DNA of 64,000 nt. It comes from Eledone cirrhosa (Eukaryota). The stretch spans positions 71,672,001 through 71,736,000 of the forward strand of contig OZ024746.1 in the NCBI GenBank assembly GCA_964016885.1, read 5' to 3'. The notes below the pieces were generated by a model. It searched no databases. It was not told the DNA's origin and was given only the letters and a program-made list of their open reading frames with translations. The translations under genes and the position numbers were made by a program. Positions 24,856 to 57,840 of this stretch are shown here, piece after piece. Each line of letters opens with the position of its first letter. The first letter of the stretch is position 1.

Positions 24856-25310
24856 TACAATATTAAATAAATGGAAACTATATTTATAAAACCATATTTA
24901 TTTCATTATATATATTTCAGGGATATCATATTAACAATATGCTATGCCTTCCTCAGACAAAATACAATATAAACAGTTTTATAGATAAATAGATTCGACA
25001 TACCGTAACAACATCTACTTGCATTTGAGAAGGTTGATCAAATCAACCTTTTCAAATGCAAGTCGATGTTGTTACGGTATGTCGAATCTATTTATCTATA
25101 AAACTGTTTATATTGTATTTTGTCTGAGGAAGGCATAGCATATTGTTAATATGATATCCCTGAAATATATATAATGAAATAAATATGGTTTTATAAATAT
25201 AGTTTCCATTTATTTAATATTGTAAATATACTCCAAATATTTGTCGAGTGCTTTTATATCAGTTATAAATATTTACTAGTTGTAACCCAACAATTTAAAT
25301 ATAACTTTCC
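24856..25310 (+). mobile_element. Family A palindromic PLE-like element: 183-bp arms, CAA spacer, 3' tail
   Basis: Arms 24856-25038 / 25042-25224 with 2 visible mismatches. Tail 25225-25310 with TCGAGTGC. Flanked by (TA)n. Confidence 0.85.
25116..25181 (+). ncRNA. Type I hammerhead ribozyme motif (family A; mirror copy on minus strand at 24899-24964)
   Basis: TATTTTGT-CTGAGGA-AGGCATAGCATATT..AATATGATATCCCT-GAAA-TATATA-TA-ATGAAATA. Confidence 0.8.
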
Positions 25311-25492
25311 ATATATATATATATATATATATAACTGATGTCATACACTGATGGTTTTTCCCTGTTTGACTGATGGCGCACTATCTCTCTCTCTGGTGTG
25401 TTATCTTTTCTACATATTGTATATATATATATGTGTGTGTATACATACATATATATGTGCATGTGTGTGTGTGTGTATGTGTCACAAAATAT

Positions 25493-25705
25493 GATTTTTA
25501 GTATAGGCACAAGGCCAGCAATTTTGAGGGAGGGAAAAGTCGATTAAATCGACCCCAGTACGTTACTGGTTCTTTATTTTATCACCCCGTAAGGACAAAA
25601 GGCAAAGTTAACCTCGGCGGGATTTGAACTCAGACCGTAAAGGACCATAACTCTATGCTGCAAAGCATGGTGTCCGACCCTCTACCGATACTGCCAATCC
25701 ACCAC
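25493..25705 (-). mobile_element. tRNA-derived SINE, longer 3' variant
   Basis: Reverse complement of the family consensus with an extra GGGGTCGATTTAATCGACT segment. Confidence 0.85.
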
Positions 25706-27389
25706 CCCTGTGTGTCACAAGATATGAATAATTACAAAAGAGGTTACGCTATTAGTTTTCTTCAACTTGTGACTTTGGTTTGGTTTTCTTTTATCCATTG
25801 TATTTTTATTCATAAATTTAAACTTTTTTTTGTTCTTAAACATTAAATTGCTCACAAAAGGAAAAATAAAAAGTAAATATAATAATGAAAACAAAAAAGT
25901 AACAATCTAAATTCAAGCAAAACCAGACAGAAATATATCATTTGTTTAAATACTTTTTGTCAGATTCTTTCTCACCCTTTTTTAAAGAAAAAAATACAAC
26001 CACCCTACCCTCACTCTCACCCACTAAATTTCTAATTGCTTAAATTGAAAAGCGATCCCGAAATATTCTATTTATTAATTAATTATCACATTTTTGTGGC
26101 GGGGTGTTAAGAATCTAAGCGAAAAAGAAAAAAAAAATGAAAGTGACAATTAAAAAGCGCAAAAAATAAGCTCAGAAAGATAAATGACTCTTTTAACTAT
26201 AAATGTGTTTGAAAGAATTTTAAAAGCATAATTTAGTTTTAAATTATGTAGCAAGGCTGACATGAAAAAAAATTAGTAATGGTGAAGGAATAACAAACTT
26301 TTTTTCATTACTATTACTGGATTAGGAGGGCGGAGAAGGAGGTGAACTGATAGAATTAATAGAATGTTAAATAGAATGCTTTGCGGTATTCGTTTCCACA
26401 CTGTGTGCTCTGTGATTTCAAAACCTAGCCGAGGTCAACTTTGCCTTTCATAATTTCGAAATCGATTAAAAAATATGGTACCAGTAAAGTACTAGGGTTC
26501 ATTTAATCTACTTATACCGCCCACTACAAGACATTTTGCTTATATTAGAAACGATTTCGATGTTGGTAAATAAAAAAAATCAGTCCATTACCAGTACCCC
26601 CAGTATATATTTATATATATATATACAATTATACATATCCTTATAAATATGTATGTGTATGCATGTATAGGCATATATACACGCGTGAGTGTGTGTCTGT
26701 GCCTCTATGTGCATGCGTGTATGTAGATAAGGGGGGGGGGAGAAAAAGAGATAGGGAGAGAGAGAGATGGAGTGTGAAAAATAGAAAGAAAGAAACAAAG
26801 CTTGATTGAGGTAATGGTGTGTGGAGTATATGATATTGTTTGGTATTTTGTTAACTTATATTGACAGATGGCCAGATAAATATGTTTGGTTGGTTGGTTG
26901 GCTGGTTGGCTGGCTGGTTAATTGGTAGGGGGACATTAAAATTCAATTAATGCTACATGCTTATACACACTATACACTCATATATACACGCATGCTTCAC
27001 TTGAGATGTATAGCTATCAGCACATACATTATCAATTGTGGACGTAGCATGCCCGAATGGTTAAGGTGTTCGCTTTGCAATCACGAAGGCCCAGGGTTTG
27101 ATCAGTCTGTGTTACATGTTGGGTAGGTGTAATTTACGTTAGACTTGAGTCGACCCTGAACCTCCGTCAATTTCGAGGATGAGTATTCCAGTTGTTTGAT
27201 CAACAGAACGTCCTACCCTTGAAATTAACGTATAACTTGGCTGTGTATTCCACAGACAAGTGTAATTCTCATGTAGAATTTGTGTGACAGATTTTATGAC
27301 AGGTCTGACCTTTTGAATTCCAAGTACATTGCATTTTGTATTTAATATAGGTGTTTGTATGTCTTGTATTGAAGTCTACAGTCTAAAGT

Positions 27390-27660
27390 CTGCCTTAAGT
27401 CAGAAGGCTCATTTGGCCGGTGCTTATCCCGGTTTCATGGCGTGAAGTGACTGAGAGTACAAGACTCTCTCCTGGATAGGACGCTAGTCCATCGCAGGGT
27501 TAAACCCCCAGCTATTGCTGGTTCTCATTTTCAGCTGAGTATACTGGAGCAACGTGAAATGAAGTGTTTTTGCTCAAGAACACAACACGCAACCCAGGAA
27601 TTGAACCCACGACATTATAATCGTAAGTCCATCACCCTTACCACTAGGCCACATGCCTCC
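27390..27660 (-). mobile_element. Second tRNA-derived SINE family (CORE-like)
   Basis: Minus strand starts GGAGGCATGTGGCCTAGTGGTAAGG, with B-box GGTTCAATTCC, then TTCTTGAGCAAAAACACTT..GCTCCAGT. Fragment also at ~51828-51915. Confidence 0.75.
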
Positions 27661-28780
27661 ACGTATTGAAGTATAGGATGTTTGTATATCTTATATTGTA
27701 GTATATGTGATTGTATATCTTGTATTGTAGTATGAGCGACTGCAATTCTCGGTGTGATTCAAAAAGACATATGTTATAAGGCTGGCCCTATGAATTACGG
27801 ATATACAACATCTGACGGGCTTCCGAACAGTCCCCGTCTATTCAGATTCAAGATGACACACAATGACATCGAACTGCGAACATCATGTTTGTGACCACAG
27901 CGTAACAATAGCCATAACGCTACTATCAACAGAAGGGTGTAAAAATATCTCCACAGTTTGGTGATTAACGGTGTCAAAGGTTAAAATATCTGTTGTGATG
28001 AAAGGTGCGAAGCAGAGATCTGGTGTTTCAGTCATAAAGTTAGTGTTAGTCTGGTTGGGGATTAAGTGTGGAGATCAGAGCAAGGGAATGAGAGAAGGGG
28101 GGGGGGGGGAGAAGCTTAGCAAAACATATTGACAAGCAGGCTGTCAGACAGTGTGTGAAGGATAGTGTGTGGGGGAATAGTGCGTGTGTGAGAGAGAGAG
28201 AGAGAGAGAGAGAGAGAGAGAGGGAGGGGAGAAAGAGAGACAGAGATGTGTGTTTGTGATGAGGTAGGGGATGAGAGTGAGAACGATGGAGGAATGAAAG
28301 AGGAGAGGGTTAGGTGAGTGTGTGTGGAGCAATTGAAAGATGTGTGACAGATTGCAAACTTTTAAAAGAGAAAGTCGATGGATTAGTGACTCGTGAGCGT
28401 AAAATATTGTGTTGGAAGTGGTCACAGACGACGAGGTGGATGGAAGGATTGATGGATGGGTGGAGATGGTAAGGGATAATAAAGGGATAAAGGAAAAAAA
28501 AGTAAGAGAAAATGGCCAAGTGAAGCAACAAGGCCAGATGGTCTCACTGTTGTTTTAGTTGGTGCAGATGGTGGTAATGGAGTTTGTGGTGGTGTAGCGG
28601 TGTGGTGGTGGAAGTCAATGGCTACGTTGGAGCGATGCTTTTGATGTGAAACAATGTTTGAGCATATGTATATTATAAATGTTTATGTGTACATATATAT
28701 ATATATATATTTATGTATGTGTATATATATATATATATATATATATATATATATATATATATATATATATATATATATAT

Positions 28781-56349: not shown

Positions 56350-56520
56350 AACTTTGGGAGGGTCATACCGCCAATAAAAACACACCCTCCTGTTGGTTTT
56401 CACTTCAATTTATCATAAATTTCCGGTTGGCTGATATTATCAAAACTCTTTGGTCGCACATTCTGTGGCCTCGTCAGTGACTAGGTTTTTATTTTGTTCT
56501 GTACTACACCATCTTTTTGT
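56350..56520 (-). mobile_element. Degenerate family C hammerhead element
   Basis: TTTGGGAGGGTCAT end. Minus strand: GTCA-CTGACGA-G-GCCACA..TGCGAC-CAAA-GAGT-TT-TGAT. Confidence 0.65.
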
Positions 56521-57174
56521 GAGTCGTGTGTTGTTATCATCATCATCATCATCACCATCATATATATATATATATATTCATATGTGTGTGTGTGTGTGTG
56601 TGTGTGTGTGTGCGCGCGCGCGCGCGCGTGTGTGGGAGGGGGGGTGTTATATTATATACTAATATCAGGTACCATATAATAACACTACCAGCATATCCAA
56701 AACAAAACTTCTAGTTCGTTCACTCCTTCCCCGTAAATTAGTAGACAGCCCCTGTGTGTGGGTAAACGTTGGAGACAAAAAGACCAAAGTGTGAAAAGTG
56801 AAGACCTTCAAGAGCCCTATTATTGTACCATAAGAAACTAATTCTTAATTCCTTTCCCTAAACTTCCCCCGTCTCTCTCTTTTTCTCCCTTTCTCTCTAT
56901 TCCTCTACTATCTCCTCTTACCACCATCAACACTAACTCCACCGCCAACACCATTACAAGAACTTGAAGGAATAGTCTTAAAGAAATAGAAGGTTGCAAG
57001 TTCACTGTATGTGCCCTTGTTCTTCTCCTCATCACCGTCATTATACTATCATCATCATTATAATTATGGTTATCATAATTCTCATCGTCACCATCATCAT
57101 TATCATCGTCATCATCCTTCTCATTATCGTCGACATCATCGTCATCATCATCATCATCATCATTATATATATAG

Positions 57175-57388
57175 AAGCTGGAGGAAGAGAGGAATAGTAT
57201 CACTACAAAACTGTGCAATACAATGGTGACTTCATATGGATGCAGATGTGCCGAGGTCATCCAAAGAAAGGGCCTCCACACTTCCTATTAATGTTTGAGA
57301 ATGCATAAATCATAGTTTGTAGACCAAATCTCATGTTTAATTGTGTTTGCCTAAAGATTGTTGCCCTTCTCTTATTTTAATCACTGTA
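57175..57388 (+). mobile_element. Tc1 transposon 3' remnant: transposase C-terminus plus right TIR
   Basis: KLEEERNSITTKLCNTMVTSYGCRCAEVIQRKGLHTSY* (57175-57291), then terminus CACTG followed by TA. Confidence 0.78.
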
Positions 57389-57413
57389 TATATATATATA
57401 TATATATATATAT

Positions 57414-57840
57414 ATAATATAAGATCAAAAGATGGTTAAAGGAGTTCCATATATTTTATTATGCGCATTTCAAAAACAAACATCATCAAGCAATAATATT
57501 TGTGTTTTCATCAGATAAAACAGGAGAACATGATATGAAGGCTAAAAAACACTTGTGGATAGTGCAGTTTTAAATCAACATGATATGTTGATTTAAAACT
57601 GCACTATCCACAAGTGTTTTTTAGCCTTCATATCATGTTCTCCTGTTTTATCTGATGAAAACACAAATATTATTGCTTGATGATGTTTGTTTTTGAAATG
57701 CGCATAATAAAATATATGGAACTCCTTTAACCATCTTTTGATCTTATATTATGCATACTCCAGTCCCACAAACTGTAGAGTGCTTCTTATCCGATATCTG
57801 CATTGCTTTATTGTACTACAATAAAACTCACCTCCTACAT
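57414..57840 (+). mobile_element. Family B palindromic PLE-like element: 168-bp arms, GAT spacer, 3' tail
   Basis: Arms 57414-57581 / 57585-57752. Tail 57753-57840 with TAGAGTGC. (TA)n on both sides. Confidence 0.85.
57646..57712 (+). ncRNA. Type I hammerhead ribozyme motif (family B; mirror copy on minus strand at 57454-57520)
   Basis: TTTTAT-CTGATGA-stem II-GAAA-TGCGCA-TA-ATAAAA. Confidence 0.8.

Follow-up and report, generated by a model that had tools for sequence, protein, structure and literature searches.

Insertions of Penelope-like elements (PLEs) have been described as carrying an inverted pseudo-long terminal repeat (pLTR), an optional tail and palindromes at the inverted junction, for which self-priming was proposed (PMC3846280; here and below, published work is cited from the portions of each text available to us). 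The same layout occurs across PLE clades together with (TA)n targeting, and the Naiad PLEs are present in Octopus spp. (PMC8557442). Recently active Penelope families are reported from O. vulgaris in a paper whose available text holds no occurrence of 'palindrom' (PMC13282606), and PLE hammerhead pairs lie on opposite strands 100-700 bp apart (PMC4209133). Head-to-head layout, one-sided tail, junction palindrome, the idea of self-priming and opposed hammerheads are all published for PLEs; the formation of the inverted repeats and of the one-sided tail is stated as open (PMC8557442, PMC11167929). We have analyzed 64,000 nucleotides of the Eledone cirrhosa genome (assembly GCA_964016885.1, contig OZ024746.1, positions 71,672,001 to 71,736,000 of the forward strand), hereafter the 64-kb window, whose first letter is position 1. 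The window holds three near-perfect palindromes, A1, B1 and C1, with one-sided tails, fixed outer ends at (TA)n and a centre at or near the family 5' end. As far as class alone is concerned, these are very probably short non-coding passengers of PLEs inserted in (TA)n.

To describe the palindromes we scanned the window for inverted repeats with spacers of up to 39 nt, and A1, B1 and C1 were the top-ranking ones. Their arms measure 183, 317 and 168 bp with 2, 2 and 0 mismatches, respectively, while the longest perfect inverted repeat expected at random is 10-13 bp (20 first-order Markov resamples of the microsatellite-stripped window, spacer ≤40 nt). The palindromes are real. A first-pass annotation had listed their coordinates, arm lengths and 3-nt spacers, all of which the scan reproduced, and had described a one-sided tail of 40-90 bp before (TA)n; the tails are 86, 41 and 86 nt long and confined to the right arm, with (TA)n next to each of the six outer ends. 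Its assignment of the palindromes to the Penelope type is supported by the head-to-head layout, the one-sided tail, the hammerheads and the (TA)n target. As in endonuclease-positive (EN+) PLE insertion units, an inverted copy lies head-to-head at the 5' end, the tail is at one end, the junction is palindromic and AT-rich or microsatellite targets are preferred; unlike those units, the window copies have no open reading frame (ORF), and their inner ends lie at a fixed family 5' end and not at scattered truncations (PMC3846280, PMC8557442). The tails of families A, C and G, at about 80-86 nt, exceed the 30-40 nt published for PLEs, and that of family B is 41 nt (PMC3846280, PMC8557442).

Sister copies were picked by hand from a masked self-comparison of the window, which gave about 20 further insertions belonging to families A, B, C, G and H plus two singletons (Table 1). 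In alignments each family has two fixed 3' ends: 19 arms reach no further than the tail boundary, and 17 run on to the end of the tail. At least five TA units follow directly after 18 of the 19 tail-less ends and 14 of the 17 tailed ends; TA runs of five or more units, including 5-nt margins, make up 12% of the window. Eleven units are head-to-head pairs, oriented by hammerhead and tail (A1, A2, A4, B1, C1, C2, C3, G1, G2, G5 and G8), and each has exactly one tail. Four of them (A1, B1, C1 and G1) are full palindromes, and in six (A2, A4, C2, C3, G2 and G8) a short tailed side faces a longer inverted arm. Relative to the tail boundary, the tailed piece starts at -51 in A2, about 0 in A4 (+16 by the local aligner, about 0 by multiple alignment), +41 in C2, +15 in C3, -2 in G2 and +27 in G8, so that it begins at or inside the tail in five of the six, the exception being A2. 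G5 is the sole pair with a short tail-less side (about 10 nt) and a full tailed arm. The two sides of a pair are truncated independently (6 short-tailed, 1 short tail-less). Two ambiguous units were kept outside the eleven pairs: G7, whose tail and arm are about 280 bp apart, and F1, which has no sister copy. B2 and B3 were considered as halves of one palindrome split by 9 kb, but with an identity of only 87% and unlike loops they are taken as two separate, unpaired copies.

Because the inverted arm exceeds the tailed side in six pairs, fold-back of a single tailed cDNA is insufficient unless deletion followed. Two start sites of the reverse transcriptase (RT) flanking the tail, on the other hand, would explain both the stop at the tail boundary and the longer inverted arms. 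The fixed, non-random arm ends suggested in the first pass are borne out by the 19 tail-less and 17 tailed ends. Its argument for fold-back from the stop at the tail boundary is not supported: fold-back alone explains neither that stop nor the six longer inverted arms.

The inner ends were compared in the same way. C1, C2 and C3 start at the same base or within one, which makes the centre of C1 the family 5' end, itself a 6-nt palindrome. H1 and H2 have a common 5' end, the inner ends of B1-B4 fall within about 15 nt upstream of one motif, and those of family A agree only roughly. The family B motif resembles what we take to be a YY1 initiator site. A perfect stem of at least 8 bp was found at 11 of 24 inner ends as against 3 of 400 background sites. 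The loops of these 11 fold-backs are 3 nt in A1, B1 and C1, 5 in B2, 8 in B3 (read by eye past one mismatch), 17 in G1, 7 in G2, 1 in G3, 0 in H1, 14 in F1 and 11 in the element at 9481-9549. Three nt is thus the modal loop, found only in A1, B1 and C1. The constant 3-nt loop from which a fold-back origin had been argued is a selection of three from this wider spread, the complete palindromes G1 and F1 having loops of 17 and 14 nt; the fold-back itself remains plausible at the centre, given the excess of stems, but is not sufficient alone. Five copies (B2, B3, G2, G3 and H1) carry short fold-backs of 9-28 bp that then stop, and in G2 the fold-back is repeated once, after which the sequence jumps to the tail across a 2-nt microhomology. 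Both arms of C1 share two variants that are missing from C2 and C3, which fits one template for both arms. A 6-bp hairpin with a 3-nt loop at the start of the C3 tail was not counted, as 48 of 400 background sites reach 6 bp. The motif CAAATC stands at the inner end of A1, A3 and A4, and judging from this the A1 spacer CAA may be templated family sequence. Since CAAATC also starts A3 and A4, we dropped the idea of the CAA spacer as a copied cap plus untemplated A's.

The right arm and tail of B1 were also compared with four of 24 sequencing data sets, no RNA data set being among the 24 listed. This sequence is a high-copy repeat in data set X1 (6471 matching contigs) and also occurs in X5, from another organism (33 contigs); two raw-read data sets gave 3 and 0 matching reads. 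Along the B1 arm, summed depth in X1 is 41,556 over the first 15 nt and 290,225 over the 15-nt bin that follows, as would be expected if the 5' end were near 34896. A lopsided head-to-head unit is seen in an X1 contig, where position 34896 is linked to 35135 on the opposite strand, and in an X5 contig the arm gives way to (TA)n at 35204, just where the B1 inverted arm has its boundary. Scans of metagenome contigs for family C and family B motifs gave 0 loci.

Several properties of known enzymes could account for this anatomy. In vitro, the Poseidon PLE protein cuts both strands of the target and extends them, with reverse transcription beginning at two internal positions that mark the limits of the tail (PMC11167929). 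Group II intron-type RTs and polymerase theta are known to carry out snap-back synthesis at short microhomologies (10.1101/2022.03.14.484287); with two polymerase types capable of it, either the RT of the element or the host could perform it. On balance we favor the formation of the units from two target-primed cDNAs, begun at the two known PLE start sites, with the centre closed by snap-back; the priming, the snap-back and the enzyme are what we infer from the anatomy. The protein of an autonomous PLE would nick both strands of a TA run, and both 3' ends would be extended with the passenger RNA as template, using the tail-end start site for one of them and the tail-boundary start site for the other. 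The tail-less cDNA would reach the 5' end of the RNA, fold back on a few bases and copy itself until the new strand met the tailed cDNA, giving a full palindrome, often with the smallest possible loop (3 nt). Where the fold-back stalled or never started, the cDNAs would be joined by microhomology or filler to give the lopsided copies, and tail-only pieces would arise where one cDNA was blocked at the start of the other, as in L1 twin priming. The use of two start sites by two target ends would make every unit head-to-head, with one tail and with sides that can be truncated independently.

In the green anole Poseidon element PAc, two fixed 3' ends likewise delimit the tail and the target is AT-rich, and extension from both strands of the PAc type would give the layout seen in the window; PAc itself is autonomous, unlike the window copies, and the available text does not trace either the head-to-head unit or the centre of that unit to the two start sites (PMC11167929). 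In L1 twin priming, too, the RNA is primed from either end of the break, which leaves an inverted part beside a direct 3' part, but the second start site is fixed here and full palindromes need extra copying; the available text does not apply twin priming to PLEs (PMC2246262). A literature search that covered few subscription journals and no supplements found no two-ended priming model for PLEs in the portions of text it returned. L1 twin priming was reportedly described by Ostertag and Kazazian.

Several observations weigh against two-ended priming with snap-back. No autonomous partner element was found, there being no RT or GIY-YIG Pfam match in 98 of the 502 window frames of 55 aa or more. 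The lopsided units could be full palindromes that suffered deletion later on. With (TA)n on either flank, a target-site duplication would go unseen. The loops of H1 (0 nt) and G3 (1 nt) leave too little room for priming from a simple hairpin. The arms of G1 differ at several sites, each arm matching different sister copies, and at 35006 both alleles of B1 are frequent in X1 and X5 alike; these variants hint at two templates more than at fold-back, although homoplasy is likely in such contexts. The contigs listed show no centre-to-centre joint, but contigs cannot show a full palindrome, so that this lack carries no weight. Finally, the numbers are small, all 24 inner and 36 outer ends coming from manual selection in a single window.

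Other origins are less probable. If one tailed cDNA folded back at its 3' end, with an endonuclease or resolution stopping the copy at the tail boundary, the lopsided copies would be later deletions. The 3-nt loops of the three longest and most identical palindromes, the identical C1 arms with their two private variants in common, and the published ascription of the tail to endonuclease-mediated resolution (PMC8557442) all agree with this. The six units whose inverted arm is longer do not, as every one of these deletions would have to begin at the centre and leave the tail-less arm intact. With loop lengths of 0-17 nt, and two start sites that already account for the tail, we give this origin only a minor chance. 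Alternatively, both target-primed cDNAs might reach the RNA 5' end and be joined between molecules, through end joining, a template jump or the annealing of ends that are self-complementary; unequal ends plus untemplated bases would then make up the 3-nt spacers. Such joining would accommodate the 0- and 1-nt spacers (H1, G3), the self-complementary family C 5' end, G1 arms that look like different variants and an A1 CAA that may be templated, on one arm only. It is nonetheless unlikely, since an intramolecular event is the simpler account of the short fold-backs (B2, B3, G3, H1) that give way to unrelated sequence and of the double fold-back of G2, and the three 3-nt spacers match the steric minimum. 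The aborted fold-backs, the 3-nt loops and the identical C1 arms favor fold-back for the full palindromes.

A palindrome inherited from a palindromic master, or made by RNA self-priming on an antisense transcript (PMC3846280), should have the same centre in every copy. Adineta vaga pLTRs do have 5' palindromes of 18 and 38 bp (PMC3846280), and a 5' hairpin of 24-28 bp is present in both B2 and B3, but centres differ within families (C1/C2/C3, G1/G2/G3, B1/B2/B3/B4), and we consider inheritance improbable. An assembly artefact from fold-back chimeric reads might produce identical arms such as those of C1, and no listed contig spans even a single B1 arm; it is very improbable all the same, for the symmetry ends at the element boundary, the flanks differ, the tail is on one side only, the arms of A1 and B1 contain mismatches, and lopsided forms of the same layout, which chimeric reads would not produce, are found as well. 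Least credible of all are miniature inverted-repeat transposable elements (MITEs) or foldback-type DNA transposons with long terminal inverted repeats and a TA target. These share the palindromic shape and TA flanks, but in the window a fixed tail extends one end where terminal inverted repeats should define both, and one-sided tails, hammerheads, solo arms and 5'-truncated pieces are present.

Table 1. Palindromes A1, B1 and C1 and sister copies in the 64-kb window.
Feature	Positions	Strand	Remarks
A1 inverted tail-less arm	24856..25038	-	outer 2 nt merge with (TA)15
A1 hammerhead in inverted arm	24899-24964	-	
A1 spacer CAA	25039..25041	no strand	
A1 sense arm	25042..25224	+	
A1 type-I hammerhead, sense arm	25116-25181	+	8-bp stem I, palindromic stem III
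A1 tail	25225..25310	+	86 nt, then (AT)11
A2	18939..19273		full inverted arm, short microhomology joint, last ~51 nt of arm plus tail
A3	42470..42650	+	solo tail-less arm, approximate inner boundary
A4	50051..50310		tail only (- strand) head-to-head with full tail-less arm
B1 inverted tail-less arm	34568..34884	-	
B1 hammerhead core, inverted arm	34790-34823	-	
B1 spacer CAA	34885..34887		~10 nt upstream of 5' ends of other family B copies
B1 sense arm	34888..35204	+	
B1 minimal hammerhead core, sense arm	34949-34982	+	6-bp stem II, stem I decayed to ~2 bp
B1 tail	35205..35245	+	41 nt, then (TA)9
B2	28781..29059	-	tail-less arm, 24-bp fold-back (5-nt loop), into minisatellite
B3	38128..38480	+	~28-bp fold-back (8-nt loop, read by eye), arm and tail
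B4	56346..56520	-	solo tail-less arm; inner end at motif of B1-B3
C1 inverted tail-less arm	57414..57581	-	identical to C1 sense arm
C1 hammerhead, inverted arm	57452-57522	-	
C1 spacer GAT	57582..57584		at family 5' end common to C2 and C3
C1 sense arm	57585..57752	+	
C1 type-I hammerhead, sense arm	57644-57714	+	
C1 tail	57753..57838	+	86 nt, then (AT)23
C2	9775..10275		full inverted arm (9775-9943), 286-nt filler (2% C), last 45 nt of tail
C3	59086..59333		last 71 nt of tail (- strand) head-to-head with full tail-less arm (59167-59333)
F1	19359..19552		palindrome, 57-bp arms, 14-nt spacer, one-sided ~66-nt extension; no second copy in window
G1	13387..13585		complete palindrome, 54-bp arms, 5 mismatches, 17-nt spacer, ~80-nt tail; no hammerhead
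G2	23516..23712		tail-less arm, 7-nt-loop fold-back twice in a row, 2-nt microhomology jump to tail
G5	50989..51132		full tailed arm (- strand) and only last ~10 nt of tail-less arm
G8	38506..38610		truncated inverted arm joined to partial tail
H1	32900..33111	-	tail-less arm, 25-bp fold-back, no spacer, into pyrimidine-rich repeat

The hammerheads were located with our own type-I descriptor, Rfam being insensitive to these variants: no Rfam hammerhead family matched the right arms of A1, B1 and C1 at E≤10, and over the whole window only microRNA-type matches on repeats appeared among the 150 of 180 matches listed. The first-pass annotation had placed outward-pointing hammerheads on both strands of each palindrome. 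This is so in A1 and C1, which have complete type-I hammerheads (8-bp stem I, palindromic stem III) facing outward on both strands; in B1 the core and stem II are present, stem I is reduced to about 2 bp, and B1, unlike its sister copy B2, does not pass the descriptor. As in PLE pLTR hammerheads, we find the core, an unpaired base before stem II, a 4-bp stem I in B2 and a palindromic stem III in families A and C; unlike those, A and C have an 8-bp stem I and a long stem II, and stem I of B1 has decayed (PMC4209133). PLE hammerheads cleave weakly or need protein (PMC4209133; PMC11167929). The paired hammerheads are likely passengers of a pLTR-like arm, and their activity is putative. Transcription through a palindrome is predicted to give one long hairpin in each case, as the first pass had proposed, with folding energies of -291, -566 and -286 kcal/mol for A1, B1 and C1. 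The hammerhead bases are paired within the predicted hairpin, and such a fold would sequester them, so that hammerhead function would need a transcript starting at the centre. Further hammerhead-core motifs were noted at 11438 (+), 36058 (-), 34092 (-), 50901 (-) and 38841 (+), representing at least two more families and a distant relative of family A.

The three families had been described as unrelated. Over 28 pairwise comparisons, B1 proved related to neither A1 nor C1, but A1 and C1 are distant relatives: a colinear alignment from hammerhead to tail scored 62 as against 32.8±5.8 for shuffled sequences (1 of 200 shuffles as high), and for the tails 0 of 500 shuffles scored as high. A motif GAGT(G/A)(C/A) lies 18-25 nt into the long tails of A1, C1, G1 and F1, among which only the A and C tails align significantly. 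The arm translations are short stopped frames without the ORF with RT and GIY-YIG that marks an autonomous PLE, and the 112-aa frames of B1 have no Pfam match.

Family G consists of elements of about 140 nt with the same tail and inverted layout and an internal hairpin, but without a hammerhead core (13387-13585, 16906-17052, 23516-23712, 38506-38610, 41739-41880, 42692-43109, 50989-51132 and 62950-63007). Naiad PLEs share the (TA)n targeting and the inverted and tail layout, and they lack a hammerhead, as does family G, whereas families A, B and C carry hammerhead motifs (PMC8557442). Family G is a candidate passenger of a hammerhead-less PLE such as Naiad. Non-LTR retrozymes, which have been linked to PLE pLTRs, resemble the window copies in being short, non-coding, likely PLE-derived and furnished with a type-I hammerhead; they are defined by head-to-tail tandem units, whereas the window copies are head-to-head pairs or solos (10.64898/2026.07.22.740005). 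No tandem of A, B or C arms was found in the self-comparison, only inverted pairs and solos.

Strand-biased low-complexity DNA was observed at inner junctions at 9945-10230 (C2, 286 nt, 2% C), 29060-30030 and 33112-33700; an A/C-rich minisatellite follows the B2 fold-back and a C/T-rich repeat that of H1. This DNA could be filler made by the insertion or pre-existing target DNA. That a telomerase-related RT belonging to the element itself performs the snap-back at the RNA 5' end and, once this stalls, stutters and adds hundreds of bases of strand-biased low-complexity DNA strikes us as quite unlikely; if true, PLE passengers would be a source as well as a target of the simple-sequence DNA of this genome.

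The window contains other repeats. The arms of an element at 9415-9599, which lies between (GT)n and (AT)n, measure 29 bp and are separated by an 11-nt spacer. An inverted duplication of 79 bp (97%; 24313-24391 versus 24626-24704) surrounds a short repeat arm (24448-24523) and a long (TA)n, and may be a fold-back of target DNA; at about 48680-48865, some 20 bp are duplicated in inverted orientation on either side of an (AC)30-(AT)36 run. A repeat of about 190 bp resembling a short interspersed element (SINE) is present in more than 15 copies, often as tandem or inverted pairs, at sites including 17703-18870, 22630-22800, 25485-25706, 44100-44253, 48045-48593, 54657-55379 and 63500-63840. Two copies of a repeat of about 400 bp that ends at (AT)n (8917-9307 and 14128-14538) are 93% identical. 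Long strand-biased mini- and microsatellite arrays with open low-complexity frames lie at 1-2800, about 4850-6600 and 29050-30030, and further satellite arrays of this kind at 36480-36910, 39420-40500 and 52500-53850.

The possible novelty here is modest: tails of about 80-86 nt, centres at fixed 5' ends, and a series of copies favoring two-ended priming with snap-back. The copies in the window are probably inert themselves. Short passengers whose 5' end is fixed and whose 3' ends are fixed at two sites, present in about 20 copies per 64 kb, nevertheless form a data set on PLE integration, and a genome-wide count of them could tell fold-back of one cDNA from two-ended priming. Hairpins as dense and as perfect as these could, moreover, feed small-RNA pathways or destabilize DNA.

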